A stretch of DNA of 25,611 nt from a bacterium (GCA_031362565.1 JANLSU010000083.1:1-25611); one strand, 5' to 3'; positions 3,863 through 21,050 are shown, counted from the stretch's first letter. The notes: a model not told the origin generated them from the letters alone. A program made the numbers and translations.

Positions 3863-3872
3863 GGGCGCCCGC

Positions 3873-4424
3873 TCATCCATGCGTCGGTGCGGCAGGTTCA
3901 GGAACCGCGGTTGGAGCGTTGGGCGCAACTGGCGCCGCCGGCGTTTCGACACCCATGTCACCGGTCGACGGCGTCACCGTCGCGGCGGGGGCCTGCGGGA
4001 AACCGGCAAAGACCGCCACGCCGGCATGCGTCGCCGCCGGCAGGAACTGCGAACGGTACGGTTCGAAGGTGATCGAGCGCGGCAGCATGAGAATGTCCGC
4101 AACCTGGCCCTCGAGACCGCGCTCTGTGAGTCGCTTCATCGCCGACGGCGACGTGTACGGGCTCTTGGCGATGAACTCGATGCGCACCGGCGCATTGGTG
4201 TCGAGGCGCACGCCGCTCACGATCGCTTGGTCCGGCTCGCCGCTCCCCACGTACTGCACGCCGTCGATGCGGACGTGCGTCCAGGGCTCACGCGACAAGA
4301 GCGCCAACTGATCGTGGACGCGCTTTTCGGGCGTGATCTTGGGGACCGCGAAATACAAAATGGCCGCGAAAACGAGCCCCACGGCGCTCCCGATCAAATA
4401 GAACGGCCGGCGATCGAACAGCAC
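3873..4424 (-). CDS. Hypothetical protein with N-terminal membrane anchor and Pro/Ala/Thr-rich C-terminal tail
   Basis: GTG start preceded by GAGGGGAG; hydrophobic segment FYLIGSAVGLVFAAILYFAV; stop abuts the aconitase-family start, giving an operon-like arrangement. No family recognised. Confidence 0.7.
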   Translation of the reverse strand: MLFDRRPFYLIGSAVGLVFAAILYFAVPKITPEKRVHDQLALLSREPWTHVRIDGVQYVGSGEPDQAIVSGVRLDTNAPVRIEFIAKSPYTSPSAMKRLTERGLEGQVADILMLPRSITFEPYRSQFLPAATHAGVAVFAGFPQAPAATVTPSTGDMGVETPAAPVAPNAPTAVPEPAAPTHG

Positions 4425-6589: not shown

Positions 6590-7963
6590 ATGCGCGCGCT
6601 GGCGCTCATCGACGGTGAGCACTATCCGCCCGTGATTCGGCACGCGCTCGATGTTCTCACGAACACCGAAGGTTTGGAGTTTGTCGGCGCCGTGTTCCTC
6701 GGCGGCACCGAGAAGCTGAAGACTTCGGATGCGTTGGCAGCTCTCGGCCTGCCGATCGTGCACGAACCGGTGCTCCTGCGCGGTGTCGAACGCGGTCTCG
6801 CCGAGTACCACCCGGAAGTCGTCATCGACCTCTCCGACGAACCGATCACCGGTTACGCAGAACGCTTCGCGTATGCGGCGGCGGCACTCGCTTCGGGCGC
6901 CGCCTACCGCGGCGCCGATTTCGAATTTCGCCCACCGCGCTTCGAGCGCGTCACGAACCGGCCTTCGTTGGCCGTATTCGGCACCGGCAAGCGCATCGGC
7001 AAGACGGCCGTGTCCGGATATCTGGCGCGCTGGCTGCGCGACCAGGGGCTCACGCCCGTCGTTGTCGCCATGGGACGCGGCGGTCCCGAAACTCCAGAAA
7101 TTGTCGATGGTGCGGCCCAAAGCCTAGACGTCGAGTCCTTGCTGCGTGCAAGCCGCGCCGGCCACCACGCGTCTTCGGATCATTTCGAGAATGCGCTCTT
7201 GTCGCGCGTGACTGCGGTCGGATCGCGGCGCTGTGGCGGCGGACTCGCAGGCGCCCCGTACGTGTCGAACGTCGTCGAAGCGGGCCGCGTTGCCGACCGT
7301 CTGGCACCGCGGGCCATCTTGTTCGATGGCAGCGGGGCGGCGATTCCACCGGTCGCCGTCGACCGCCGCGTGCTGGTCATGGGCGCACACCAGAAACTCG
7401 ACACGCTGCGGAGCTACTTCGGCCCGTATCGTATTCGCATTGCTGACGTCGTTCTGTTGACGATGTGCGAGGAACCGCTCGCCGATGCGGCACGTATCGC
7501 CGAAATTCGCGCCGCGGTAGCGTCGATTCAGCCGCGCGCCCGCTGCATTGAAACTGTGTTTCGGCCGCGCCCATGGTTTTCGGGGTCGCTCGCCGGGCGC
7601 CGGGTCTTCCTGGCGCTCACGGCCCCGGAATCCATGGGTACGACGCTCGCATCGCACCTCGAGCGCACGCATGGGATGACGGTCATCGGCGTGACGCATG
7701 CCCTCGCCGATCGCCAGCGCCTGCGGGAAGACTTGGCGCGCGGCCTAGCAGCGCATCCGGACGTCGTGCTGACCGAGATCAAGGCGGCGTCCATCGACGT
7801 CGTGGCCGAGGTCGCAACCCAGGCCGGCGTCCAGGTGGGCTTCCTCGACAACATCCCGGTGGCGCGCGACTCGAGCATCGACTTGGATGGCTGGCTCGTG
7901 GACGCACTCGATCTCGAACCCTTGCGCCAGCGAGCGGCGCTCGATGCCGGCGATCGGAGCTGA
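6590..7963 (+). CDS. cpgS: Cyclic 2,3-diphosphoglycerate synthetase
   Basis: GAGGAGG RBS before ATG 6590. Motifs LIDGEHYPPV, FLGGTEKL, DLSDEP, GTGKRIGKTAVS (P-loop), VAMGRGGP, HASSDHFE, RRCGGGLAG, GSGAAIPP, LTMCEEP and TEIKAASIDVV match Methanothermus-type cDPGS along the whole length. Confidence 0.93.
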   Translation: MRALALIDGEHYPPVIRHALDVLTNTEGLEFVGAVFLGGTEKLKTSDALAALGLPIVHEPVLLRGVERGLAEYHPEVVIDLSDEPITGYAERFAYAAAALASGAAYRGADFEFRPPRFERVTNRPSLAVFGTGKRIGKTAVSGYLARWLRDQGLTPVVVAMGRGGPETPEIVDGAAQSLDVESLLRASRAGHHASSDHFENALLSRVTAVGSRRCGGGLAGAPYVSNVVEAGRVADRLAPRAILFDGSGAAIPPVAVDRRVLVMGAHQKLDTLRSYFGPYRIRIADVVLLTMCEEPLADAARIAEIRAAVASIQPRARCIETVFRPRPWFSGSLAGRRVFLALTAPESMGTTLASHLERTHGMTVIGVTHALADRQRLREDLARGLAAHPDVVLTEIKAASIDVVAEVATQAGVQVGFLDNIPVARDSSIDLDGWLVDALDLEPLRQRAALDAGDRS

Positions 7964-7968
7964 GTGCG

Positions 7969-8898
7969 GTGACCGAACTGCTCGTGCGTCGTGGAACGTC
8001 CGTCGTTCCATTCTCGCGCGGCATCCTGGCCCGCTCGCTCTTGGAGCTCGGGTTCGATGCGACGCGCGCCTACGACATTGCCGCCCACCTGCACTCCGAG
8101 CTGCAGAACGACGGTATGTCGCTCGTCACCACGGCCCACCTGTCGCGCATCGTCAGTGAACGCCTGGGCCGCTATGCGCCGACAGACATGGTGATGCGCT
8201 ATGAGAAGATGCGGCACTTCCGCCAGAGTCCGCGGCCGTTGGTGCTGTTGATCGGCGGTTCGACCGGTTCGGGCAAGTCGTCGCTCGCGACCGAAGTCGC
8301 GCACCGTCTCGATGTCACACGCATCTTGTCGACCGATTCGGTGCGCCACGTCATGCGGGCGATGATCTCCGACCGGCTGTTGCCGTCTATTCACCGCTCG
8401 TCGTTCGAGGCTTGGCGTGACCCGGCGATCATCGCGCTGCCGAACTTGGATCCGACCGTCGGCGCCTTTCGCGAGCAGACGCAGCATGTCGCGGTCGCCG
8501 TCGAAGCGGTGCTCGAACGCGCCGTGCAGGAGAATCTGTCGATGATCTTGGAAGGCGTGCACCTGGTGCCAGGGCTCTTCAAGCGGTTCGCGAGCAATAC
8601 GACACTGCAGTTCCTGCACATTGTCGTGCATGTGCAGGACGAAACGATGCATCGCCTACGCTTCGTCGAACGCGGCCGCGGCGCGCGCGAGCGGCCGGGG
8701 CACCGCTATCTCGACAATTTCGACGCCATCCGCACCATCCAAGCGCACCTGGTCGAGCGCGCCCACGCCGAGTCCGTGCCCGTGCTCGAAAACCGCGACT
8801 TCGACACCACCGTGCACGCGCTGCTCGGGCATGTGCTCGATGCGGTCGGAGCTTCGACGCCGCTTATTCCACCCGTGGCGCGTAAGCCGACGCTCTGA
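7969..8898 (+). CDS. pgk2: 2-phosphoglycerate kinase (ATP-cone + P-loop kinase)
   Basis: GTG 7969, 5 nt after the cpgS stop, with GGAG upstream. PFSRGILARSL (ATP-cone), LIGGSTGSGKSSLATEVAHRL, STDSVRHVMR, IHRSSF, ILEGVHLVPG, YLDNFDAIRTIQ. Adjacent to cpgS, its pathway partner. Confidence 0.9.
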   Translation: MTELLVRRGTSVVPFSRGILARSLLELGFDATRAYDIAAHLHSELQNDGMSLVTTAHLSRIVSERLGRYAPTDMVMRYEKMRHFRQSPRPLVLLIGGSTGSGKSSLATEVAHRLDVTRILSTDSVRHVMRAMISDRLLPSIHRSSFEAWRDPAIIALPNLDPTVGAFREQTQHVAVAVEAVLERAVQENLSMILEGVHLVPGLFKRFASNTTLQFLHIVVHVQDETMHRLRFVERGRGARERPGHRYLDNFDAIRTIQAHLVERAHAESVPVLENRDFDTTVHALLGHVLDAVGASTPLIPPVARKPTL

Positions 8899-9285: not shown

Positions 9286-10389
9286 TCAGCGGGCGAAGCC
9301 GTAGGCGCCCGCGTTCCGAAGCGCTGGTAACGACCGGCGCGGCAGAAGCACCGTTCGCACAGCCCAGAGTTCGGTGAAGATTCGATAGCGGGTCGTTTGA
9401 TCGAGATAGTCGACGCCGGCGGAGCCGCCGGTGCCCATGCGGCGGCCGATCGTGCGCTCGACCATGCGCGCGTGGCGGGTGCGCCAGAGCACGAGTTGTT
9501 CTTCGAGCTCGACGACCGTGTCGACGAGCAGGCGCGGCCAGGCGAGAAGCGGCAGCTCGCGGTAGGATTCAATGAAAAGGAGGCCAGCGCGGATGCGTTG
9601 GGCGCGCGGGCGGAGCGGCGCATCGACATCCTCGGCCAGCAGGAAGGCACGCGCGCCGGCCGCTGACTGGGCGACGCGGCACTGGACCGTTGAGCGATCG
9701 CCACCCTGCGTCTCGAGAACACGCTCGGCTTGCTCTGCTTGCAGGGCTTCGAGTGCCCGCAGATAGTCGTGGAGAAATGCCTCCACGGCCTGCGCGTCGC
9801 CTGGATCCTGCGGTCCCGAACCGTGAATGGGCGTGCGGTAGAGCCAGTCGTTGAGCGCGGCACGCAACGTCAGTTCTTGCCCGGCGGCGGCGATGCGCTC
9901 CATGGCCAGGTGACCACCGGGTGTCGCAGCCGCAAGCGTCTTCACTTGCTGCATGGCCGCGACCGCTTCAGTTGCGCGCTCGGCCTCTTCGAATCCCAGC
10001 AAGATCTCGATTTCCCGCATCTGGAACGACTGGAAGCCACTCGCCGGGGTCAATTTGTCGCGAAAGCCCAGGAAGTCCTGCGGCGTGAGCGTTTCCATGA
10101 CGCGAAACTGGTCGACCGCGAGCTTGAGGATCTCGTTGATGCGCCGCAAGTGGTGCACGACGTGCGGTACGGTCTCTTCCGCCACCCGTGGTGCGGCCAG
10201 GTGGTCGCGGGCCAGGCGCAGTTCGCGCAGGATGAGCTTGAACCATAGCTCGTAGACTTGGTGGACGACGATGAAGTGCAGTTCGTCAGGCATGAGCGAC
10301 GCATCGTCGTCCCCGAGTCCACTCTGCAGATCGAGAAGCCGGTCGAGCTTCAGGTAGTCCCAGTAGGTGGGAACTTGCGGCGCGGCCAT
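9286..10389 (-). CDS. kynA: Tryptophan 2,3-dioxygenase (long form, 367 aa)
   Basis: ATG 10389 after GGGAG. YWDYLKLDRLLDLQ, DELHFIVVHQVYELWFK, FRDKLTPASGFQSFQMREIE, WRTRHARMVERTIGRRMGTGGSAGVDYL (proximal His and GTGGS loop), FTELWAVRT. Confidence 0.96.
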   Translation of the reverse strand: MAAPQVPTYWDYLKLDRLLDLQSGLGDDDASLMPDELHFIVVHQVYELWFKLILRELRLARDHLAAPRVAEETVPHVVHHLRRINEILKLAVDQFRVMETLTPQDFLGFRDKLTPASGFQSFQMREIEILLGFEEAERATEAVAAMQQVKTLAAATPGGHLAMERIAAAGQELTLRAALNDWLYRTPIHGSGPQDPGDAQAVEAFLHDYLRALEALQAEQAERVLETQGGDRSTVQCRVAQSAAGARAFLLAEDVDAPLRPRAQRIRAGLLFIESYRELPLLAWPRLLVDTVVELEEQLVLWRTRHARMVERTIGRRMGTGGSAGVDYLDQTTRYRIFTELWAVRTVLLPRRSLPALRNAGAYGFAR

Positions 10390-10527
10390 GGGGGCTCCCG
10401 TTCGGTTCGTTCGTTCGAGCGGTGCAGTATCGCAGACCGGCGGGCGTGGCTCAAGCGCCCAAAGCATCGCCAATCGTGGTATTTTCCGGCGTTCGAGGCG
10501 CCCGGCAAGGGTTCGAGAGGAAAATGC

Positions 10528-11949
10528 ATGGCCCGCAAGATCATTCTCTTCGAACTGAACGAAGTTCCGAACCGAATCGTCGAGGAATACTGCCGCTGGC
10601 AGCCGGACTCGGCATTCGCCCGGCAACTCGCGGTGTGTTTACGCTACGAGACCGTCACCGAAGACATCGGCAACCTCTCGCCGTGGACGACCTGGCCGAG
10701 CTTGCATCGCGGCGTCAGCAATGCACAGCATCAGTTGTCGGACTTCGGCCAGAACACTGCCGAACTCGACACCGCCTACCCGCCGCTCTGGAGTCTCTTG
10801 GCGCGCCATGGCGTGCCGGTGGGGGTGTGCGGTTCCCTGCACACCTATCCGATGCCGGCGGACCTGACCAGCTACGCGTTCTATCTTCCGGACACCTTCG
10901 CGGCCGGCGCCGAGTGCTTCCCAGCCGTCCTCGAGTCATTCCAGGAATTCAACCTGATCATGGCGCGCGAGTCGGCGCGCAACGTCAGCACGCGGGTGCC
11001 GTGGGCCGCGGCGTTGCGTCTGCTCGCCAACATTCCTGGTCTCGGCATCAAGCCCGCGACGCTGCTCGACCTGGGACAGCAATTGATGGCCGAACGCGGC
11101 GCGCCGGAGCGCCGCGTGCGCCGCCGCACCTACCAGAGCGTTCTGGCGTTCGACGTCTTCATGCAACAACTGGCGCGCACCGAGCCGGCGTTCGCGACGT
11201 TCTTTACCAATCATGTCGCGTCATCCATGCACCGTTACTGGGCCGCCACTTTTCCCGGCGACTACGACACGATGGAGTTCACGCCCGAGTGGATCGCGAC
11301 CTACGGCGACGAGATCCGCTTCGCCATGGACAAGGCGAGCGCCATGATCGGGCGCGTGCTGCAATTCGCGGATCGTCATCCCGAGTACACGGTGTGGATC
11401 GCAACGAGCATGGGGCAGGAGGCAACGATCGCCCAACCGGTCGAGACCCAGCTCTACGTGACCGATCCCGGACGGCTCATGGCAGCGCTTGGATTCACGG
11501 CCGGCGAGTGGGAACCACGTCCTGCCATGCTGCCGCAGTTCAACGTCGTCGTCTCACCCGAGCGGCAGCACGCCTTCACTGACCGTTTATCGCAGCTCCG
11601 CATTGCGGGTGACCCACTGGTGTTTCGCGTTGCGGCGGCCGGCTTCGTGAGCCTCGACTTTGGCCACTACAACCTTGCACCCACGGCGCACGCCGAACTC
11701 GACGGCGACACCACGAGTTTCGCCGCCCTGGGTCTCTCGAATACCGAAATCCAAGACAAGTCCGGAACCTGCGCCTATCACATCCCGCAGGGCTGCTTGT
11801 TCATCTACGATCCGCGCGACAAAGCTGCGAAAACCGGGGCCACCCAGCAGGTGTCGACGCTCGACATCGCACCTACAATCCTGCAAAACTTCGGTGTTGC
11901 AGCGCCGGGTTTCATGCACCCCGCCGCGCGGCTCGGGGTCCCCGGTTGA
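10528..11949 (+). CDS. Alkaline phosphatase/sulfatase-superfamily protein with a non-canonical metal site, function unknown
   Basis: ATG 10528 after GAGAGG. KIILFELNEVP (first strand), LSPWTTWPSLHRG (nucleophile helix), HVASSMHRYW, YHIPQGCLF and C-terminal STLDIAPTIL, which is typical of the AlkP fold. Confidence 0.7.
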   Translation: MARKIILFELNEVPNRIVEEYCRWQPDSAFARQLAVCLRYETVTEDIGNLSPWTTWPSLHRGVSNAQHQLSDFGQNTAELDTAYPPLWSLLARHGVPVGVCGSLHTYPMPADLTSYAFYLPDTFAAGAECFPAVLESFQEFNLIMARESARNVSTRVPWAAALRLLANIPGLGIKPATLLDLGQQLMAERGAPERRVRRRTYQSVLAFDVFMQQLARTEPAFATFFTNHVASSMHRYWAATFPGDYDTMEFTPEWIATYGDEIRFAMDKASAMIGRVLQFADRHPEYTVWIATSMGQEATIAQPVETQLYVTDPGRLMAALGFTAGEWEPRPAMLPQFNVVVSPERQHAFTDRLSQLRIAGDPLVFRVAAAGFVSLDFGHYNLAPTAHAELDGDTTSFAALGLSNTEIQDKSGTCAYHIPQGCLFIYDPRDKAAKTGATQQVSTLDIAPTILQNFGVAAPGFMHPAARLGVPG

Positions 11950-11980
11950 CCGCTGGGGCTCGTTCCGATAAGGATGGCGC

Positions 11981-12790
11981 ATGTCGGTTTCAGAACCCTT
12001 GGGTGGGACACTTTCGCTTGCCGGGCGGCATGCCCTCGTCTGCGGCGCCTCGGCCGGGATCGGGCGCGCGTCGGCGCTCGCTCTCGCATCACTCGGTGCC
12101 CGCGTCACGGTGCTCGCGCGCCGGCGCGATGTACTGGAGGCGCTCCTGCCGGCATTGCGGACAGCCGGCGCGGCTTCGCCCGCGGCAGTCGCCGCCGATC
12201 TCGACGACCCCATGTCTTTCGAACCCGCGGTGCGGGCCCTCTTGGCAACCGGCGGGCCCGTCCACGTCTTAGTGAACAATTCGGGCGGTCCGGCACCGGG
12301 CGCCGTTCTCGCGTCTTCGTCCGAGCACTTCGCCGCGGGATTCGCGCGCGTTTTGTATTCGGCGCAGAGCCTGGTGCAACTGTGCCTGGCGGGAATGCGC
12401 GACGCAGGCTTCGGGCGCATCGTCAACGTGCTGTCGACGTCGGTGCGCGAGCCGATTCCAAATTTGGGCGTCGGCAACACGGTGCGCGGTGCGATGGCGG
12501 GCTGGGCGAAGACATTATCGCGTGAACTGCCCGCCGGAGTGACCATCAACAGCGTGCTGCCGGGCTACACCGCGACCGAGCGTCTGCAAGAACTGGCCGA
12601 GCTCACGGCCCGCAACACCGGCCGCACCGTCGCCGACATTCACGCCGACTGGACGCGCGAGATCCCGGAGGGGCGCCTCGCATCTCCGGATGAGATTGGC
12701 AACGTCATCGCTTTCCTGTGCTCACCGGCCGCCGCTTACGTCCGCGGCCAGAGCATCGCCGTGGATGGCGGCCGCATGCGCAGCATCTGA
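11981..12790 (+). CDS. SDR family oxidoreductase, atypical BKR-like subgroup
   Basis: CGASAGIG nucleotide-binding loop, LARR, LVNNSGGP, RIVNVLSTS, PGYTATER, VDGG. Canonical YxxxK is replaced by GNTVR. Confidence 0.9.
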   Translation: MSVSEPLGGTLSLAGRHALVCGASAGIGRASALALASLGARVTVLARRRDVLEALLPALRTAGAASPAAVAADLDDPMSFEPAVRALLATGGPVHVLVNNSGGPAPGAVLASSSEHFAAGFARVLYSAQSLVQLCLAGMRDAGFGRIVNVLSTSVREPIPNLGVGNTVRGAMAGWAKTLSRELPAGVTINSVLPGYTATERLQELAELTARNTGRTVADIHADWTREIPEGRLASPDEIGNVIAFLCSPAAAYVRGQSIAVDGGRMRSI

Positions 12791-12805
12791 GGAGGGCGAG
12801 GCGGC

Positions 12806-14047
12806 GTGCACTTCGACATCTTCTTTTCGATCTCGCAGACGCCAGTCGGTGGCGTCGTCCCGTCCGAAGCCACCATGTTCGGCAATTTCTTCGATCAGGT
12901 GCAGGCAGCCGACGAGTTGGGCTTCGGCACCGCTTGGATCGCCGAGTCGCACTTATCGTCCGAGGTTCAGAAGCGCCACAAACAACCGGTGATTCCCCAC
13001 TGGCAGGGTGAAGTCGGTCTCAATGTCGATTTCCTGCAGTTGGCGCAGCACATCTTCCGCCGCACGCGCCGGATCGAAGCCGGCTCGGCCGTCATGAACA
13101 TCATTTGCAACGGTGGGCCGATCGCGCACGCCGAGCGTGTCGCGGCGTTTGCGGCCCTCCACGGGCTCGATCCCGCCGAGCACCGCCGCATTCATGTGGG
13201 ATTCGCCGCCGGCCGTTTCGAATTCATGAATCGGGCGGCCGGCATCGTGCCGCGTGACGCGGTCGAGGCGGCGGCGTGGCCAGCGCTCAAGGGCAAGGTT
13301 TTCACCGAAGCCGCTGAGATCTTCCTGAGCCTCCTGCGCGGCGATACTCTCGCGAGTGCGGACGTCACGCCGACACTGCTTACGCGAAGCGACTTTCGGA
13401 CGGACGAGGACTGGCAGCGTGTTCAGGGGGCGGCCGCGGAGACGCGCGGTGCAAGCGTCACAGATTCGGTCGAGATCGCACCGCGCTGGGTCTTCGAACC
13501 GCTCAAGATCGTGCCGCAAGAATGGCGGCGCGATGTCGTGCAACTGCTCATCGGCTCCCATGAACCGCGCCTGCAGGAGGCCGTCAACGCGATCCTGCCG
13601 GTGCAGGTGTTCAATCTCTCGATCACGCGGCCCGAGATCATCGAGGACACCCACACGCGGCTGGCGCGCGCCTATCACCCGAGTGGCGGGCCGTGGCAAC
13701 GCTCCTACATGCCGCGCACCGTGTTCGTTTTCCTGAATGAGCAGCCCGGATTGTCGGCCGAGCGACGGCGTGTCGCGGCGCAAGACGAGGCGCGAACTGC
13801 GCTCGGTGCCTACTGGACGGCACTCGAAGGCACGCTCGATCCTTCGAAGGTCAACAATGCGGCCGACAACGCTCTCATCGGCAACGCGGAAGACGTCGCG
13901 CAGCAAATGATCGAGCGCTTCCATCCCGAAGACCGGCTCATGCTGTGGTTCGACTTCTTCAACCATGACAGCGGGCGCGTGATCGCCAACATGGAAGCCT
14001 TCATGCGCGAGGTCGCGCCACGGGTCGAGCGAGCGGTGGGCGCATGA
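12806..14047 (+). CDS. LLM-class (bacterial luciferase-like) flavin-dependent monooxygenase
   Basis: GTG start after GAGGAGG. QVQAADELGFGTAWIAESH, RTRRIEAGSAV, PIAHAERVA, RIHVGFAAG, ALIGNAEDVAQQM and MEAFMREVAP follow the luciferase TIM-barrel pattern. Confidence 0.85.
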   Translation: MHFDIFFSISQTPVGGVVPSEATMFGNFFDQVQAADELGFGTAWIAESHLSSEVQKRHKQPVIPHWQGEVGLNVDFLQLAQHIFRRTRRIEAGSAVMNIICNGGPIAHAERVAAFAALHGLDPAEHRRIHVGFAAGRFEFMNRAAGIVPRDAVEAAAWPALKGKVFTEAAEIFLSLLRGDTLASADVTPTLLTRSDFRTDEDWQRVQGAAAETRGASVTDSVEIAPRWVFEPLKIVPQEWRRDVVQLLIGSHEPRLQEAVNAILPVQVFNLSITRPEIIEDTHTRLARAYHPSGGPWQRSYMPRTVFVFLNEQPGLSAERRRVAAQDEARTALGAYWTALEGTLDPSKVNNAADNALIGNAEDVAQQMIERFHPEDRLMLWFDFFNHDSGRVIANMEAFMREVAPRVERAVGA

Positions 14048-15216
14048 GTCCAAAACAAGACAAGGTACTGCCGAGCGCCGTTTCACCTGGGAAGCCCGGC
14101 AGTGACATCTACCCGCGCTCGCCGCTCGGCGAATCGGACCCGCGCATTCCGACCGGCCGCGACGTCGAATGGGTGCCGCTCGTCGACTACCGGCGGAACG
14201 GCGTCAGTGAGACGACGATTCATGGCGCGCTCGCTTGGGCGGCAGGCGACCGCGTGATGCATTCCTTCGGCGGCAATGTGCTCTGTTATGGCCGCAGCAT
14301 GATGAAGCCGCTCATGATGAAGGTGTTCACCTCGGCGCTCGACCCGGTGCTCGACTGGCGGCAGAAGGCGATCGCGGTCTCGAGCCACAATGGCAGCACC
14401 GAACACGTCGCAGCGGCGCAATCGCTCTTGCCGGAGAGCGAGTGGGGCTTGATGCAAACGCCGCTCGATGTGCCGCTCGTACAGTTCGGCCGCCAGGTGC
14501 GCCGGCCGCGCCGTTGGTATCACACCTGTTCCGGCGAGCACGCCGGCATCCTGCTCGGTTGCCGGCTGCGCGGCTGGAGCCGCGCCGGCTACACGCTCCC
14601 CCAGCATCCTTTCTTCCGCGGCTATCTCGAGCAGGTGCGCCGCCACCTGGGAGCGGATTGGGAGCCGTTGCGCATCGCTCGCGACGGCTGCGGATTGCCT
14701 ACGATCTCCAACACGGTCGGCGAATTGGCCGTGCTCTACGCGAGCTTGGCGCGCACCCACGACGAGGATTGGATCTGGGAGTCCATGGTGCGCTACCCCG
14801 ATCTCATCGGCGGTTTCAATCGCTTGGACAGCACCGTCATCAAAGCCTGCGGCGGCAGTGTTATCGCCAAAGAAGGCGCCGACGGGCTCTTGGGGCTCGC
14901 GATCCGGCATCCGGACTATCCACAAGGGCTGGGTGTCGTCATCAAGATCGCGCACGGATGGAATCCGCGCGCCACGTGGTACGTAGCTCGTGCCGTTCTG
15001 GGCGTGCTCGGATTCGAATTGCGCAATCCCTATGCCTTGCACCGGCAGAAGGCGTTCCTGGTGCCGGGCGTCGTGCCGCCTGGGCTCTTGCCCAAGATCG
15101 AAGCCATCCCGACGTGGGATGAATGGGATCCGGATCGCGACCGGTGGTACTACGACTTTCATCGCTATCCCGACGCCTTCGGCACCGACGATTCGGATGA
15201 CGGGAGAACGCCATGA
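14044..15216 (+). CDS. Asparaginase II (Rhizobium etli AnsA/class 3) family amidohydrolase with a variant active site
   Basis: ATGA overlap with the LLM gene. RSMMKP (Ser-Lys pair), SSHNG, TCSGEHAG (family motif NCSGKHAG), DGCGLP, AKEGADG, IKIAHG. Confidence 0.85.
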   Translation: MSPKQDKVLPSAVSPGKPGSDIYPRSPLGESDPRIPTGRDVEWVPLVDYRRNGVSETTIHGALAWAAGDRVMHSFGGNVLCYGRSMMKPLMMKVFTSALDPVLDWRQKAIAVSSHNGSTEHVAAAQSLLPESEWGLMQTPLDVPLVQFGRQVRRPRRWYHTCSGEHAGILLGCRLRGWSRAGYTLPQHPFFRGYLEQVRRHLGADWEPLRIARDGCGLPTISNTVGELAVLYASLARTHDEDWIWESMVRYPDLIGGFNRLDSTVIKACGGSVIAKEGADGLLGLAIRHPDYPQGLGVVIKIAHGWNPRATWYVARAVLGVLGFELRNPYALHRQKAFLVPGVVPPGLLPKIEAIPTWDEWDPDRDRWYYDFHRYPDAFGTDDSDDGRTP

Positions 15217-16667
15217 CACCGGCCGAACCCTCGGTCCTCGCGCAGTTCATTGGGGGACGCTTCGTGCCGCCCGCCGGCGGTGCGTATCTGGATGACATCG
15301 CACCGGCGACGGGAGCGGTCGTTGCGAGGGTGCCGCGCGGCGACGCGCGCGACGTCGAAGCGGCCGTCGCGGCCGCACGCGCCGCGTTCCCCGGCTGGTC
15401 GGGACGCTCCGTCGGCGAGCGCGCCGCCATTCTGGATGCGGTCGCGGCACGCATCGAGGCACGCGCCGATGAACTCGCGGCCTTGGAGTCGCTCGACACG
15501 GGCAAGCCGGTCCAACTGGCGCGCAGCGTCGACATTCCGCGCGCCGTGCTCAATTTTCGCTTTTTCGCAGGCGCCGTGCGCCACGACTCGACGGGCTGCC
15601 ATGAGATGCCCGGCGCGATCAACTACACGCTCCGCCGCCCCGTAGGAATCGCGGGCCTCGTGACACCGTGGAACCTGCCGCTCTACTTGTTGACGTGGAA
15701 AGCGGCACCAGCGCTCGCGCTCGGCAACACCGTGGTCGCCAAGCCGAGCGAGTTGACGCCGCTCACCGCCGCCGCACTCTGCGAAATCATGGCGGAGGCT
15801 GGCGTGCCGAACGGCGTCTTCAACTTGGTGCACGGGCTTGGCGGGGAGGCCGGGCAAGCGCTCGTCGAGCATCCGGACGTGCGCGCCATCTCATTCACCG
15901 GCGGTACCGCAACCGGGGCTCGCGTCGCTGCGACCGCAGCACCGCTCTTCAAGAAGCTATCGCTCGAACTGGGGGGTAAGAATCCGACCCTGGTGTTCGC
16001 GGACTGCGACTTCGAAGCGGCCGTCGAGGGGACGGTGCGCGCCGGATTTCAGAACCAAGGGCAAGTATGCCTCTGCGGCTCGCGGGTCCTGGTCGAGGCC
16101 TCGATCGCGGATCGATTCACCGCTGCCCTCCGTGACCGCGTCGGGGCGCTCCGGATCGGCGACCCAAGCGACCCGGCGACGCAGTTCGGCGCCCTCGTCT
16201 CGGCAGCGCATCGCGACAAGGTCGAGGGCTATCTGCAACTCGCACGCACTGAGGGTGGCACCGTGACCGGTGGCATCCGTCCGACGCTCGAGCCGCCCTT
16301 CGATGCCGGCGCATTCCTGTCGCCAGCGGTCGTCACCGGGCTCGGCCCCGACTGCCGCACCGCGCAGGAAGAAATCTTTGGGCCAGTCGTGACCGTGCAC
16401 CCATTTCGAGACGAGACGGAAGCGATCGCGATTGCGAACGGCGTGCGCTACGGACTCTCGGCATCGGTGTGGACGCGAAATCTGGGCCGCGCCCACCGCG
16501 TCGCGGCGGCCCTCGACACCGGTATGGTGTGGGTGAACACCTGGCTCTTGCGTGATTTGCGAGTGCCGTTCGGCGGCGTCAAGGCAAGCGGCGTCGGCCG
16601 CGAAGGCGGCGACTTCTCGCTCGAGTTCTTCAGCGAGTCCCGCAACGTGTGTATCAAGCTGGACTGA
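15213..16667 (+). CDS. amnC: Aldehyde dehydrogenase, 2-aminomuconate/2-hydroxymuconate-6-semialdehyde dehydrogenase (ALDH8/HMSD) type
   Basis: ATGA overlap. DIPRAVLNFRFF, PWNLPLYLLTWKAAPALA, KPSELTP, SFTGGT, SLELGGKNP, NQGQVCLCGSR, EEIFGPV, WLLRDLRVPFGGVKASGVGREGG. Genomic context of aminophenol dioxygenase and RidA. Confidence 0.85.
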   Translation: MTPAEPSVLAQFIGGRFVPPAGGAYLDDIAPATGAVVARVPRGDARDVEAAVAAARAAFPGWSGRSVGERAAILDAVAARIEARADELAALESLDTGKPVQLARSVDIPRAVLNFRFFAGAVRHDSTGCHEMPGAINYTLRRPVGIAGLVTPWNLPLYLLTWKAAPALALGNTVVAKPSELTPLTAAALCEIMAEAGVPNGVFNLVHGLGGEAGQALVEHPDVRAISFTGGTATGARVAATAAPLFKKLSLELGGKNPTLVFADCDFEAAVEGTVRAGFQNQGQVCLCGSRVLVEASIADRFTAALRDRVGALRIGDPSDPATQFGALVSAAHRDKVEGYLQLARTEGGTVTGGIRPTLEPPFDAGAFLSPAVVTGLGPDCRTAQEEIFGPVVTVHPFRDETEAIAIANGVRYGLSASVWTRNLGRAHRVAAALDTGMVWVNTWLLRDLRVPFGGVKASGVGREGGDFSLEFFSESRNVCIKLD

Positions 16668-16813
16668 GTCAATTTGAGCTGAAATGGCTCCGACCGAACC
16701 GGTGTCACGCGACGTGCCGGGAGCCGCGAACTCGTCGGACCGATAGGGCACCGGCGACCCATACTTGCACATGTTTCTGAAGTGCAAGCACTAACATGCT
16801 GTAAGCACATATG

Positions 16814-16852
16814 TTGACATGCTTGACAGCCCCGGGCCGCGCATGCAAACAT
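16814..16852 (+). promoter_or_regulatory. Putative sigma70-type promoter of the downstream secreted-protein gene
   Basis: Two perfect TTGACA hexamers (16814-16819, 16823-16828) in a locally AT-richer stretch; only a weak -10 (AAACAT, 16847-16852). Confidence 0.4.
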
Positions 16853-17052
16853 GAAAGGGTCAATCAACCGTGTCTTTGTTCGTGACCGGGTTCCGCGGCT
16901 GCCGTGGAACGCCAGGGGATCCGCGCCACGTCCCAGAAGCTCTTTCGAAGCAATCCGGGGACCAAGCCCCGCATGCCGGTGTGCAGCTTCAAACGCTTGC
17001 GGCGTCATAGAGAAGTGAGGCCGTTTGATTCATCACCTTTGGGGGTACGGAC

Positions 17053-17856
17053 ATGAGATGGGCCCATATCGGCAGAACGATGGTGTTCGCCGTAACAGCA
17101 TTGGGACTCGCTGCCGCCGCGAGTGCAACGACGATTCCCAACAGCGCCGTTCTTCACACGCGAGTCTTCGACGATTGTCCGATTTCGATTCTTTCCACCA
17201 CGAACCTCTTTCCAAGCCTCATTGAAATCAACGACCAAAACCAACCGCCACAACCTCTTTGCGCCGGCTTCGCGAATCTTCATACTTGGCGATTCTCGAC
17301 CGACGGTGTCAACGCAGAGCAATTCGTGAACAGCGATGGCTTCCACTACAAGGCAACGCTCGTACTGAACGGCGGCGGTGAAGGTGGTCTGTCGATGGCG
17401 CCTTGGTACAGCCCGGACGCGGATGGCTTGTTCAGTGTCAGAACGACGGACGGCGAGATCGCTTGCTTCGGAGGTCGCATGCCGTTCTTCACGTTCACTG
17501 GAGCGTTTGGTCTCGTGTACGTGAACAACACTCCGATCACTCTCGGCATCGACTATGTGCCGCGCGGGCTTTCGGCGGTGTCCCCGGCGCAGGTCACCTA
17601 TACGGTTCGGTACAACAACGTCGACTACACGAGCGGGCCGCTCGACTTCGACCAGGGGAATGCAGCGGAGGATCCGCCGCACGGGCTCTGGGGAGCACTC
17701 AATCCATGGTACGCCGGTGGCCATGTCAAGGCGTTCCAATTCCCCGCCGGTCAACCCCATGGCATCGTCGCCGATTGGACCGACATCACCTTCGGAGATG
17801 GCGTTGTCTCCGTCGCGCCGAGCGACTGGGGCCGTGTGAAGGCATTGTATCGTTGA
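17053..17856 (+). CDS. Secreted hypothetical protein with C-terminal WGRVKALYR tail
   Basis: Signal-peptide-like N-terminus (R..R..MVFAVTALGLAAAASA); beta-rich mature region; ends VVSVAPSDWGRVKALYR; followed by an intrinsic terminator. Confidence 0.85.
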   Translation: MRWAHIGRTMVFAVTALGLAAAASATTIPNSAVLHTRVFDDCPISILSTTNLFPSLIEINDQNQPPQPLCAGFANLHTWRFSTDGVNAEQFVNSDGFHYKATLVLNGGGEGGLSMAPWYSPDADGLFSVRTTDGEIACFGGRMPFFTFTGAFGLVYVNNTPITLGIDYVPRGLSAVSPAQVTYTVRYNNVDYTSGPLDFDQGNAAEDPPHGLWGALNPWYAGGHVKAFQFPAGQPHGIVADWTDITFGDGVVSVAPSDWGRVKALYR

Positions 17857-17873
17857 TATGGAAGACCCGTTCC

Positions 17874-17911
17874 AAGGCCTCTTACTGCCGCCCGGTGGTA
17901 GGAGGCCTTTT
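17874..17911 (+). terminator. Rho-independent terminator
   Basis: 16-bp stem AAGGCCTCTTACTGCC / GGTGGTAGGAGGCCTT (fully paired when G-U is allowed), loop GCCC, short T run, 17 nt after the stop codon. Confidence 0.75.
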
Positions 17912-18067
17912 CGCATGCAGCACCAGGACATGGGGGGCGATGGGTCAGGGTTCTACGACGACAAGCCACTATGAGATGCGCGTGCTGCAAACGGGCCGGA
18001 GCCTGGCACATCCAGCGAATCTTTCGTAGACTCCCGGTTCCGAACGGGCACTACGAGGGAGGCTGGA

Positions 18068-18997
18068 ATGGGCGGCAAGGGACGTATCGTCGCGGGGTAT
18101 CTCGCGCCGCATCCGCCGCATCTTGTCTATGCCGAAAACCCGCCGCAGAACGAGCCGCGCTCGGAGTGCGGCTGGGAAGTTCTGCGCTGGGGGTACGAGC
18201 GTTGCCGCCAGAACCTGGCGACCAAGGACTTCGACGTCATCGTGGTGCATTCGCCGCACTGGCGCACCTTCGTCGGGCATCATTTTCTAGGTGTGCCCCA
18301 CTTTGAGAGCCTGTCAGTGGATCCTATTTTCCCGAATCTGTTTCGCTACCACTACAAGTGCGACGTCGACGTGCAGCTTGCGGAAGCGATCCACGATTCG
18401 GCGCGGGACGCGGGACTCGGCGTGCAGATGATGCGCAACCCGGACTTCCGGCTCGACTACGGCACCATTGCCGCGTGCCATCTGATTCACCCGGCTTGGG
18501 ACATCCCGATCGTCGGTATTTCTTCGAACGGCGCGCACTTCTACTACAGCAATGACGTGGGCCAGGCGCAGATGCAGGCGCTCGGGCAGGCGACGCGCAA
18601 AGCCATCGAAGCCACCGGGCGCAAGGCGTTGCTCTTGGCCAGCAACTCGCTCAGCCACCGGCATTTCACCAGTGAGCCCGAGACCCCCGAGGACATGTCG
18701 CACGAACGCATCTACCACCATGGACAGTACCTGTGGGACATGCATGTGCTGGATTTGATGCGCAAAGGCCAGACCCGGCAACTCTTCGATGAGCTCCCGG
18801 ACTTCATCGACCAGTCGGAAAGCGAAGCCAAGGCCGGGTGCCTGGCGTGGCTTTTGTCGGCCCTCGACTTCCCCACCTGGCCTGCCACCGTGCATGCGTA
18901 CGGCACCGTCATCGGAACCGGGAATGCGGTCGTCGAGTGGGACGTCGACGCGGCGATGGCACCAGCTGGGGCGACGCGTGCAGGAGGCAAACGATGA
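18068..18997 (+). CDS. amnB: 2-aminophenol 1,6-dioxygenase beta (catalytic) subunit, LigB-type extradiol dioxygenase
   Basis: AGYLAPHPPHLVYAENPPQNEPRS, VHSPHW, VGHHFLG, SVDPIFPN, MMRNPDFRLDYGTI, LLASNSLSH, PEDMS, SEAKAG and YGTVIGTGNAV match AmnB/CnbCb as I recall them, including the His/His/Glu iron ligands and catalytic Tyr/His. Confidence 0.93.
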   Translation: MGGKGRIVAGYLAPHPPHLVYAENPPQNEPRSECGWEVLRWGYERCRQNLATKDFDVIVVHSPHWRTFVGHHFLGVPHFESLSVDPIFPNLFRYHYKCDVDVQLAEAIHDSARDAGLGVQMMRNPDFRLDYGTIAACHLIHPAWDIPIVGISSNGAHFYYSNDVGQAQMQALGQATRKAIEATGRKALLLASNSLSHRHFTSEPETPEDMSHERIYHHGQYLWDMHVLDLMRKGQTRQLFDELPDFIDQSESEAKAGCLAWLLSALDFPTWPATVHAYGTVIGTGNAVVEWDVDAAMAPAGATRAGGKR

Positions 18998-20412
18998 CGG
19001 CGGGGACAGGCCACGTCATTCGCGGCTACATCGTACCGGGCATGCCGCAGCCGCTGTTGGTGCCGGATCAGTCGCCGGGATGGCGTTCGCTCCGTGACTC
19101 GTTCGAGCGCGTGCGGCAGGAGATCGAGGCCTCGGATGCCGACCTCTTGCTTCTCTACAGCACGCAATGGACCAGCATCATCGGCCATCAGATCCAAGCC
19201 GACCCTGAGCCCGAATGGGTGCATGTCGATCCCGAGTGGCATGCGCTCGGCTCGATGCCGTACCGGTTCCGCATGGACGCCGAGTTCGGTGCGGCCTACG
19301 AAGCCGCGGCGCGCGCCCGCGGCCTGCAAGCGCGTACCGTCGCATACCACGGCTTCCCGATCGACACCGGCACCGTCGTCGCGCTGCAGCTCCTGAACCC
19401 GGGCAATCGCCGCGCTGCGAGCGTCGTGTCGTGCAACATGTACGCGGACCGGGGCGAAACGCTCGTCCTCGGCAAGGCGGCCGCGGATGCCGTGCAGGCC
19501 ACCGGACGCAAATGCATCGCCATCGCGGTGACGCTGCTCTCGAATCGCCTCTTCACGGAAGCCATCGATCCTGCCAAGGACCACATCGCATCTCTCAAGG
19601 ACGACGAGTGGAATCGCAAGATTCTCGAGATTCTGGGTGAAGGCCGCTTGGAGGACGTGTCGCAACTGGCGCGTGAATTCACCGCCCAAGCCAACGCCGA
19701 TCAGAAGATGAAAGCACTCTGGTGGCTGGCGGCGACCATGGGACAACACAACCGTTACGACGGGCAGGTCTTCGACTACCAGCCGGTGTGGGGCACGGGT
19801 GCTGCACTCGTTGGTCTCGTGCCGACGGGCCGCGCCGCCGCCGATCAAGAGTTCGACGAGGAAAGCGTCGATGTGTATCGCGGCGATCGCAATGTGCTGT
19901 CGGCGGCGGATGCCGCAACAGAGAGCGAATCCACAACCGGCGCTGGGACTGCGGCCGTGCCTGCGGTGCCGGTCACAGCGCCAACGGGCGCGATCCGGGT
20001 CGATTCCGCACCGCGGCCCGTGGGCGCCTATGCGCACGCACGCCGCGTCGGCGATCTGCTCTTCCTCGCCGGCATCGGCCCCCGCCGGGCGAGCGACGAC
20101 GCCATTCCCGGCGGCCCGGTGCGCGACGCCGGTGGCGCGCCCCTCGACTACGATATCGAAGCGCAAACCCGCGCGTGCATCGCCAACGTGCAGCACGTCC
20201 TCGAAAAAGCCGGTTCGTCGCTCGATCAGGTCTTCGACGTCACGGCGTACCTCATCGATATGGAGCGGGATTTCCCGGTGTTCAATCGCGTCTACGCGGA
20301 GTACTTCCCAAATGCCAGCGCGACCCGGACCACCGTTGCGGTCTCCGCGCTGCCGACCCCGATCGCCGTCGAGCTCAAGGTGATTGCGGCGGCGGGAAAG
20401 ACATCCACATGA
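18994..20412 (+). CDS. amnA: Fusion: 2-aminophenol 1,6-dioxygenase alpha subunit + RidA-family 2-aminomuconate deaminase-like domain
   Basis: ATG 18994 (ATGA overlap, AGGAGG RBS). N-domain VPGMPQP, LYSTQW, VHVDPEW, YHGFPIDTGT, DDEWNRKIL (AmnA/CnbCa). Acidic then Ala/Thr/Pro linker at about 19826-19990. C-domain PVGAYAHARRVGDLLFLAG, QTRACIANV, DMERDFPVFNRVYAEYF, TRTTV (catalytic Arg), VELKVIA. No in-frame stop between the domains. Confidence 0.9.
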   Translation: MTAGTGHVIRGYIVPGMPQPLLVPDQSPGWRSLRDSFERVRQEIEASDADLLLLYSTQWTSIIGHQIQADPEPEWVHVDPEWHALGSMPYRFRMDAEFGAAYEAAARARGLQARTVAYHGFPIDTGTVVALQLLNPGNRRAASVVSCNMYADRGETLVLGKAAADAVQATGRKCIAIAVTLLSNRLFTEAIDPAKDHIASLKDDEWNRKILEILGEGRLEDVSQLAREFTAQANADQKMKALWWLAATMGQHNRYDGQVFDYQPVWGTGAALVGLVPTGRAAADQEFDEESVDVYRGDRNVLSAADAATESESTTGAGTAAVPAVPVTAPTGAIRVDSAPRPVGAYAHARRVGDLLFLAGIGPRRASDDAIPGGPVRDAGGAPLDYDIEAQTRACIANVQHVLEKAGSSLDQVFDVTAYLIDMERDFPVFNRVYAEYFPNASATRTTVAVSALPTPIAVELKVIAAAGKTST

Positions 20413-21050
20413 CGCGGCTCATCGATATTTCGCCGCTCATTTCTGACCGCATCGGCGTCTTCCCAGGCGACGTGCCGTACCGGCGTGACGTCAGCCTGCG
20501 GATCGCGGATGGCGCCAATATCGATCTCTCAGCGCTGCATTCGACACTGCATGTTGGAGCGCACGCCGACGCACCGAATCACTACATTGCCGGCGGAGCG
20601 CCGATTGCCGCCCGGCCGCTCGACCTCTACTACGGCCCGTGTCAGGTGGTCCGGGTCCAGGCGGCGCGTGGAGTACGCATCCAACCCGGCGACCTCGGCG
20701 TCGAGATTGAAGCGCCGCGCGTCCTCTTCCAGACCGCGACGTTTCCGGACCCGAACACCTTCAACGAAGACTTCGCCAGCCTCTCGCCGGCGCTCATCGA
20801 CTGGCTCGCGGAGCGCGGGGTGCGTCTGGTCGGCATCGATACGCCGTCCATCGATCCATGTCACGATCCGGTCCTGGAGAGCCACCAGGCGGTTGCACGG
20901 CACGATATGGCGATCCTGGAAGGTCTTGTCCTCGCGCACGTCGATCCAGGTCTGTACACGCTCGTCGCCCTCCCGCTGCGTTTGGAAGGCGCCGATGCCT
21001 CACCCGTCCGTGCAGCGCTCATCGCGGCCAGCAGCGTTTTTCCCGCCTGA
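20409..21050 (+). CDS. kynB: Kynurenine formamidase (cyclase family)
   Basis: ATG 20409 (ATGA overlap). LIDISP, FPGD, HVGAHADAPNH (HxGxHxDxPxH metal motif), LVGIDTPSIDP, ILEGL, LPLRLEGADASPVRA. kynA is in the same cluster. Confidence 0.92.
   Translation: MTRLIDISPLISDRIGVFPGDVPYRRDVSLRIADGANIDLSALHSTLHVGAHADAPNHYIAGGAPIAARPLDLYYGPCQVVRVQAARGVRIQPGDLGVEIEAPRVLFQTATFPDPNTFNEDFASLSPALIDWLAERGVRLVGIDTPSIDPCHDPVLESHQAVARHDMAILEGLVLAHVDPGLYTLVALPLRLEGADASPVRAALIAASSVFPA

Follow-up and report, generated by a model that had tools for sequence, protein, structure and literature searches.

The 25,611-nucleotide bacterial contig JANLSU010000083.1 (GCA_031362565.1), referred to here in its whole length as the window, carries a gene cluster at positions 9,286–21,050 that combines the top of the kynurenine pathway with enzymes of 2-aminophenol ring cleavage. 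The cluster encodes tryptophan 2,3-dioxygenase (TDO, kynA), an atypical short-chain dehydrogenase/reductase (SDR), a divergent luciferase-like monooxygenase (LLM), a homologue of class 3 asparaginases, an aldehyde dehydrogenase (ALDH), AmnB-like and AmnA-like dioxygenase subunits, a RidA domain and the kynurenine formamidase KynB (Table 1). It probably serves a kynureninase-independent form of tryptophan catabolism, in which kynurenine would be converted to aspartate and 2-aminophenol by the LLM and the asparaginase homologue, followed by ring cleavage. Comparative genomics gives this reading of the pathway good support, and the proposed two-step chemistry (Baeyer–Villiger oxygenation and hydrolysis) fits the homology of the enzymes and is the most economical reading. 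Chances appear about even that the proposal holds in its widest form, namely that pyridoxal phosphate (PLP)-independent cleavage of kynurenine is widespread and involves Baeyer–Villiger oxygenation of a free amino acid by an LLM, a rebuilt class 3 asparaginase, a natural substrate for AmnBA and an SDR without catalytic tyrosine that leads to 2-oxoadipate, with nine genes taking tryptophan to central metabolites without kynureninase, kynurenine 3-monooxygenase (KMO), 3-hydroxyanthranilate dioxygenase (3-HAO, also HAAO) or 2-amino-3-carboxymuconate semialdehyde (ACMS) decarboxylase (ACMSD).

Kynurenine is a beta-aspartyl aryl ketone. By homology, TDO and KynB would produce L-kynurenine, after which an FMN-dependent LLM would insert an oxygen atom next to the gamma-carbonyl, on its aryl side, in a Baeyer–Villiger reaction. 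This would yield aspartate carrying a 2-aminophenyl ester on its beta-carboxyl, a compound that may rearrange by an O-to-N shift to N4-(2-hydroxyphenyl)asparagine. The retained serine nucleophile of the asparaginase homologue would attack the beta-aspartyl carbonyl, with a retained arginine holding the substrate alpha-carboxylate, and would release L-aspartate and 2-aminophenol. In the later, homology-supported steps the AmnB/AmnA-like dioxygenase would convert 2-aminophenol to 2-aminomuconate semialdehyde, ALDH would oxidize this to 2-aminomuconate, and the RidA domain would deaminate 2-aminomuconate to 4-oxalocrotonate. The SDR may carry 4-oxalocrotonate or 2-aminomuconate towards 2-oxoadipate, or may provide reduced flavin for the LLM. 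The LLM and the asparaginase homologue are proposed to bridge kynurenine and 2-aminophenol because they are the only conserved genes left to connect them, and the asparaginase homologue would suit the LLM product because the carbonyl of a beta-aspartyl aryl ester or N4-aryl asparagine is of the type that a Ser-Lys pair attacks. Conversion of an aryl ketone to an aryl ester and then, by hydrolysis, to a phenol is known from 4-hydroxyacetophenone degradation, in which a Baeyer–Villiger monooxygenase and an esterase follow the logic proposed here; compared with known systems of this kind, the substrate would be an amino acid and the hydrolase an asparaginase homologue. The route was not found described in a search of full-text literature, which omits most subscription journals. 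A report on an actinobacterial 2-aminophenol microcompartment (mBio 2023; PMC10470539) makes no mention of kynurenine, tryptophan, luciferase, asparaginase or monooxygenase.

The cluster recurs in distant genomes. When the asparaginase homologue was searched against a collection with one genome per species, at least 546 of 601 matched stretches were found to encode a relative. The best 120 homologues, the window's own aside, are 75–87% identical and carry labels of Planctomycetota, Myxococcota, Latescibacterota and Alphaproteobacteria. The best 80 loci, with homologues 68–82% identical, were fetched and compared by tblastn with the window proteins; they come from Planctomycetota, Myxococcota, Bdellovibrionota and, in many cases, Marine Group II archaea, and all are metagenome-assembled genomes by title; cluster look-ups likewise yielded no named isolate. 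The usual gene order is SDR-LLM-asparaginase-ALDH-AmnB-AmnA-RidA-KynB, with KynB immediately 3' of RidA in 18 loci; a Bdellovibrio-type variant reads SDR-LLM-ALDH-AmnB-AmnA-asparaginase-RidA. Recurrence of the same order in related loci makes the arrangement far beyond chance. An earlier note on this DNA had expected the LLM and asparaginase genes to be conserved beside amnAB genes elsewhere, and the order is indeed kept across phyla and into archaea; the conserved set also includes the SDR, which the note had left out. Clustering of 2699 open reading frames (ORFs) from the 80 loci returned no further conserved neighbour, such as a flavin reductase or lower meta-pathway genes, and, beyond antisense shadow ORFs and housekeeping genes, yielded just an amino-acid permease, in nine loci. 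No other conserved neighbour able to bridge kynurenine and 2-aminophenol is present. The permease has a C-terminal EF-hand, and its representative (12804–14477 in locus L057) follows ALDH.

Within the window, four ATGA overlaps, all proposed earlier and all read in the DNA, join LLM to asparaginase, asparaginase to ALDH, the first LigB gene to the second and RidA to KynB, so that the asparaginase homologue has an overlap at both gene ends. The LLM gene starts with GTG, nine bases 3' of GGAGG. A six-frame analysis in which 34 ORFs were scanned with Pfam, plus NCBIfam, recovered the full gene set of the earlier note (kynA, kynB, LLM, asparaginase, ALDH, AmnB, AmnA and RidA), and the Pfam scan agreed with it that no window ORF has a kynureninase, 3-HAO or ACMSD-type domain. 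Its description needs one correction here, in that the AmnA-like LigB domain and RidA form a single 472-aa ORF with no intervening stop.

Linkage to tryptophan breakdown was assessed in two genome sets. The first consists of the source genomes of 46 of the 80 loci (the other 34 loci, mostly short contigs, were left out without regard to content), and the second is an even sample of 151 genomes from the window's own phylum; genomes in both sets are related, and the counts are offered with no statistical test. TDO is present in 45 of the 46 cluster genomes and a Cyclase/KynB family protein in 35. In the phylum sample, the asparaginase homologue, LLM and AmnB occur in exactly the same ten genomes (G000, G048, G056, G147, G156, G062, G088, G104, G113 and G145), none of them was found in the other 141, and TDO occurs in 10/10. 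Over both sets, TDO accompanies the cluster in 55 of 56 genomes and is found in 12 of the 141 genomes without it, which makes the linkage of the cluster to TDO very strong. The earlier note had also asked whether these genes co-occur and whether they anti-correlate with kynureninase; co-occurrence of LLM, asparaginase, amnAB-like genes and TDO is borne out, and anti-correlation holds in the first set, in which kynureninase is over cut-off in 0/46 genomes (11 have weak paralogue matches of at most 48 bits), and fails in the phylum sample.

The same counts bear on the idea that another aminoaromatic substrate yields 2-aminophenol and that its association with TDO and KynB is accidental, a matter of regulation or of history. 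Only 16 of the 80 fetched loci include TDO and 20 include KynB, and AmnBA-type enzymes are known, by PDB titles, from nitroarene and aminophenol degraders, as such an origin would lead one to expect. This explanation is nevertheless very unlikely given the TDO counts in genomes with and without the cluster and hosts that include oligotrophic marine archaea. Moreover, the TDOs of cluster genomes differ in type (Pfam scores of 66–363 bits, in one or two matched stretches), which argues for a functional rather than an inherited linkage.

The window's own genome (5.4 Mb, 133 contigs; completeness 100%, contamination 1.85%) was searched for the genes of the familiar route, as the earlier note had advised, and neither kynureninase nor 3-HAO was found. 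Kynureninase (TIGR01814) had no match at E≤0.001, and 3-HAO (PF06052) had none with a profile that finds a 207-bit copy in the phylum genome G153. For the single strong FAD_binding_3 protein, the best matches are PRK06184 and models of rifampin-monooxygenase type, and no KMO-like protein was recognised among FAD_binding_3 matches, a search made with no KMO-specific profile. In G153, no KMO was found in the fetched surroundings of kynureninase and 3-HAO. One Amidohydro_2 protein (139 bits) also occurs in the window's own genome.

The lower-pathway enzymes were identified by sequence searches of the PDB. The AmnB-like protein, aligned over nearly its full length, scores 401.6 bits to 3vsg_B, 382 to 8ihg_A and 353 to 7txy_B, which are beta subunits of 2-amino-5-chlorophenol and 2-aminophenol 1,6-dioxygenase. 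With the alpha subunits 7txy_A, 3vsg_A and 8ihg_B, the AmnA-like domain reaches 189, 164 and 159 bits, compared with 107–109 bits for beta subunits. For ALDH, the top seven matches are all 2-aminomuconate 6-semialdehyde dehydrogenases (484–500 bits; best 4i1w, 500), and the RidA domain is closest to 2-aminomuconate deaminase 6izh (87 bits; next RidA 66 bits). These similarities support a predicted sequence from 2-aminophenol through 2-aminomuconate semialdehyde and 2-aminomuconate to 4-oxalocrotonate. Of the 47 loci with both AmnA and RidA, 17 encode them in a single ORF; L065, counted among the 17, extends past its contig end, so that the fusion there is undecidable. The recurring fusion suggests that unstable semialdehyde and aminomuconate intermediates are handled within one complex.

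The asparaginase homologue is the candidate beta-aspartyl hydrolase. It belongs to the same Pfam family (PF06089) as the class 3 L-asparaginases ReAV and ReAIV of Rhizobium etli (7os3, 8cly, 9g66), to which it scores only 59 bits, and it shares with them two Ser-Lys tandems. In an alignment of 81 sequences (the window protein and 80 orthologues), R84, S85, K88, S114 and K276, equivalent to Arg47, Ser48, Lys51, Ser80 and Lys263 of ReAV, do not vary in any of the 80 sequences that extend over them, and the equivalents of ReAV His139, Tyr156 and Asp187 are invariant wherever orthologues cover them. All five of the former residues are reported to be essential in ReAV, with Arg47 holding the substrate alpha-carboxylate, in a paper that names the defining residues of class 3 asparaginases (PMC12292245), and the zinc of this class is described as non-catalytic, anchoring the alpha-amino and alpha-carboxy groups of the substrate (PMC12951835). 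The metal ligands of the window protein are C162, E165 and C216 at the positions of ReAV Cys135, Lys138 and Cys189. Compared with ReAV and ReAIV, window-type homologues have Glu (or His) for Lys138, Ser and Asp for the Cys ligands in about a quarter of sequences, Asp for Cys249 in 81/81, an extra conserved C-terminal tail and a different gene context. The invariant Ser, Lys and Arg residues and the altered metal ligands suggest that the homologue retains what a beta-aspartyl hydrolase uses to form an acyl-enzyme and to clamp the alpha-carboxylate, with a rebuilt anchoring site, and it is proposed to be a beta-aspartyl-(2-aminophenol) hydrolase.

Another assignment would make the homologue an ordinary L-asparaginase, with the LLM serving an unrelated function and with 2-aminophenol arising elsewhere. 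PF06089 is over cut-off and the catalytic residues are kept, as an ordinary asparaginase would have them. This assignment is highly improbable in view of the distance from ReAV and ReAIV, the replacement of Lys138 and Cys249, the 68–87% identity of the homologue across phyla and domains, its translational coupling on both sides and its occurrence in the 151-genome sample, in which it is never without LLM and AmnB.

The LLM is the candidate kynurenine oxygenase. It has no sequence relative in the PDB below E=0.06, and an AlphaFold (AF2) model built from a 34-sequence alignment reached a predicted confidence (pLDDT) of 90.9. Foldseek with this model gave only LLM TIM barrels as top matches, at 12–18% identity and with template-modelling (TM) scores of up to 0.78 on the target, including luciferases, RslO1, RutA, SsuD and F420 enzymes (8cbb, 7bip and 1luc at probability 1.00). 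On the model, the LLM TIM-barrel fold can be regarded as settled. That the enzyme would act as a kynurenine Baeyer–Villiger oxygenase is proposed as pure inference. An apparent SDR-LLM fusion in locus L025, the sole fused ORF, was considered as a Rosetta stone and rejected as an artefact, since its junction is made up of ambiguous bases read as X in translation. In a eukaryotic gene model of 1501 aa (P0246, EukProt), the N-terminal domain matches the LLM along its entire length at 42% identity, followed by a GATase-like and then an ApbE (FMN transferase) domain. This is the only longer fused form found, no other window protein matches it and it may be a merged gene model, and it was set aside as uninformative.

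The SDR usually lies directly upstream of the LLM; in loci L039 and L044 it stands beside ALDH, with the LLM on the other strand. In an alignment of 52 sequences, the Gly-rich NAD(P)-binding motif G-A-S-x-G-I-G is kept, and S/G165-N166-x-x-R169 occupies what we take to be the position of the usual catalytic YxxxK motif. N166, R169 and R47, which lies after beta-2, are invariant in 52/52 sequences; at position 165, 50 sequences have S and two have G. From its sequence, this SDR is not a classical carbonyl reductase because S/G-N-x-x-R replaces YxxxK. Its best PDB relatives are structural-genomics SDRs with titles that give no function. It may act as a reductase on 4-oxalocrotonate or 2-aminomuconate, leading towards 2-oxoadipate, or it may be the source of FMNH2 for the LLM. 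The former is suggested because the decarboxylase/hydratase/aldolase branch was not found: 4-oxalocrotonate decarboxylase (TIGR03218) has no match in the window's own genome and is over cut-off in one of the 46 cluster genomes (any match in four), and 4-hydroxy-2-oxovalerate aldolase (TIGR03217) reaches only 41–55 bits in the window's own genome against a cut-off of 286. An NAD(P)H-dependent step to 2-oxoadipate is reported to have been long postulated in animals (bioRxiv 10.64898/2026.06.05.730449).

Several observations weigh against the proposed route, or against parts of it. In the phylum sample, kynureninase occurs in 29 of 151 genomes (28 over cut-off), in two of the ten with the cluster compared with 27 of the 141 without it, so exclusion of kynureninase, strong in the 46-genome set, is absent here. 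Kynureninase and the cluster coexist in G113 (289 bits) and probably in G145 (228.6 bits, cut by a contig end), and the two routes are thus not mutually exclusive. Twelve genomes of family f5 (e.g., G057, G058 and G065) have TDO and neither the cluster nor kynureninase; absence of kynureninase alone therefore proves little. The zinc site of the asparaginase homologue is changed, with C-E-C in 59–60 sequences (window included) and S-H-D in 20–21. The hypothesis as first framed in the earlier note leaves the conserved SDR without a role and is silent on how 2-aminomuconate is consumed, and searches did not find the familiar lower pathway. A single FAH-family protein encoded outside the cluster in the window's own genome, below all equivalog cut-offs, could still decarboxylate 4-oxalocrotonate. 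Eleven of the 46 cluster genomes, all among the smallest (1.4–2.2 Mb), have no Cyclase-type formamidase. Two further features of the phylum sample concern the distribution of the genes more generally: the TDO of family f5 has its Pfam match split into two stretches in 11 of the 12 genomes, in open frames of 258–725 aa, and 27 kynureninase-bearing genomes are without a PF03301 TDO.

The formamidase count bears on the order of the first steps. The LLM could act on N-formylkynurenine, with deformylation by KynB or another formamidase following oxygen insertion or hydrolysis. Besides the 11 genomes without a Cyclase-type enzyme, the place of KynB as the last gene of the dioxygenase block, ATGA-coupled to it, would suit this order. 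It is quite unlikely all the same, since Bdellovibrio-type genomes have TDO and KynB together and apart from the cluster, which fits free kynurenine, and KynB scores 202 bits to the arylformamidase equivalog.

The reaction assigned to the LLM is also exposed to doubt. The LLM has no close characterised relative, and identities of 12–18% to its structural matches would not distinguish oxygen insertion from hydroxylation. The type II Baeyer–Villiger enzyme 3,6-diketocamphane monooxygenase (5aec, 4uwm) shares the LLM fold and ranks only 25 and 31 in Foldseek at about 14% identity, so that the LLM is no closer to it than to luciferases, RutA or SsuD. In a route of a different kind, the LLM would hydroxylate C3 of kynurenine as a KMO analogue, the AmnBA-like dioxygenase would cleave 3-hydroxykynurenine, itself an o-aminophenol, and the asparaginase homologue would hydrolyse the beta-aspartyl-ketone C–C bond in the product of ring fission to give aspartate and 2-aminomuconate semialdehyde. 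Such a route would need no other genes and would lead to identical compounds downstream, locus and genome profiles fit it equally well, and the lack of a recognised KMO-like protein in the window's own genome agrees with it. With the KMO search made by FAD_binding_3 and no KMO-specific profile, a 3-hydroxykynurenine intermediate may also occur. To our knowledge, aromatic hydroxylation is rare among LLMs, and the AmnB-like protein scores 353–402 bits to enzymes characterised on 2-aminophenol and 2-amino-5-chlorophenol. The class 3 asparaginase fold is not known to carry out C–C hydrolysis, and its solved members attack an amide carbonyl. On this balance, the 3-hydroxykynurenine route is unlikely, and oxygen insertion with release of 2-aminophenol is preferred.

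The proposed pathway shares parts with two well-known systems. With the 2-aminophenol meta-cleavage clusters (amn/cnb/nbz; AmnBA/CnbCaCb, AmnC and AmnD), it has in common a two-subunit LigB-type dioxygenase, a semialdehyde dehydrogenase and a RidA-type deaminase, each of which is the best PDB match of its counterpart. In contrast to those clusters, 4-oxalocrotonate decarboxylase, hydratase, aldolase and acylating dehydrogenase were not found here, alpha subunit and deaminase are joined in one ORF, the genes are linked to TDO/KynB, LLM and the asparaginase homologue, and the hosts are uncultured heterotrophs and archaea rather than pollutant degraders. With bacterial kynurenine pathways (the anthranilate branch via KynU and the branch via KMO, KynU, NbaC, NbaD, NbaE and NbaF), it has in common TDO/KynB at the top and 2-aminomuconate semialdehyde dehydrogenase and 2-aminomuconate deaminase at the bottom. 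Unlike in those pathways, the kynureninase, 3-HAO and ACMS decarboxylase steps would not be used, 2-aminomuconate semialdehyde would derive from 2-aminophenol instead of ACMS, and aspartate rather than alanine would be released.

Tryptophan catabolism has been thought to be well mapped. If the proposed route is true, it would be a third branch in bacteria and archaea, two of its reactions would be without precedent, and pathway annotation would change in abundant marine heterotrophs, including Marine Group II archaea, Planctomycetota and Bdellovibrionota. Ring-cleavage enzymes known so far from pollutant degraders would then serve tryptophan breakdown in hundreds of uncultured bacteria and marine archaea, and the origin of pollutant-degrading amn genes would be explained. 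LLM oxygenases and class 3 asparaginases would each gain a new class of substrate, and a function would be provided for thousands of proteins labelled ‘L-asparaginase II’ or ‘LLM class oxidoreductase’.

Table 1. Features of the cluster and its surroundings in the window, with the number of the 80 fetched loci in which each has a counterpart. Locus counts are lower bounds, as many loci are short contigs ended by contig edges.
Feature	Position	Strand	Basis of assignment	Loci (of 80)
TDO (kynA)	9286–10389	-	PF03301, 209 bits; TIGR03036, 169 bits, below cut-off	16
473-aa protein between TDO and SDR	10528–11949	+	no Pfam or NCBIfam match even at E=1	0
Atypical SDR	11981–12790	+	adh_short_C2, 131 bits	55
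Divergent LLM	12806–14047	+	PF00296, 31.1 bits (cut-off 27.9), N-terminal third only	69
Class 3 asparaginase homologue (Asparaginase_II)	14044–15216	+	PF06089, 164 bits, over cut-off	
2-Aminomuconate-6-semialdehyde dehydrogenase (ALDH; AmnC/NbaE type)	15213–16667	+	ALDH Pfam, 560 bits; TIGR03216-like, 597 bits, under cut-off	76
267-aa protein, signal-peptide-like N-terminus	17053–17856	+	no Pfam match; lower-GC stretch (GC 0.59)	0
AmnB-like protein, 2-aminophenol 1,6-dioxygenase beta (catalytic) subunit	18068–18997	+	LigB	59
AmnA-like alpha subunit, fused to RidA (ORF 18994–20412)	18994–~19860	+	LigB	57
RidA domain of the same ORF	~20020–20412	+	RidA	48
KynB, kynurenine formamidase	20409–21050	+	TIGR03035, 202 bits, just under cut-off 223; PF04199 (Cyclase), 61 bits, over cut-off	20
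SthA transhydrogenase	after KynB			0 (likewise upstream genes)

TDO is transcribed divergently from the plus-strand genes of the cluster, which are divided into two blocks by the 473-aa and 267-aa proteins. Neither protein is conserved in the related loci, and both are outside the conserved system. Two further genes in the window are unrelated to the cluster: an aconitase-family protein of 717 aa (1808–3961) and a 2-phosphoglycerate-kinase-like protein (7573–8898; 282 bits to PRK04220, under cut-off).

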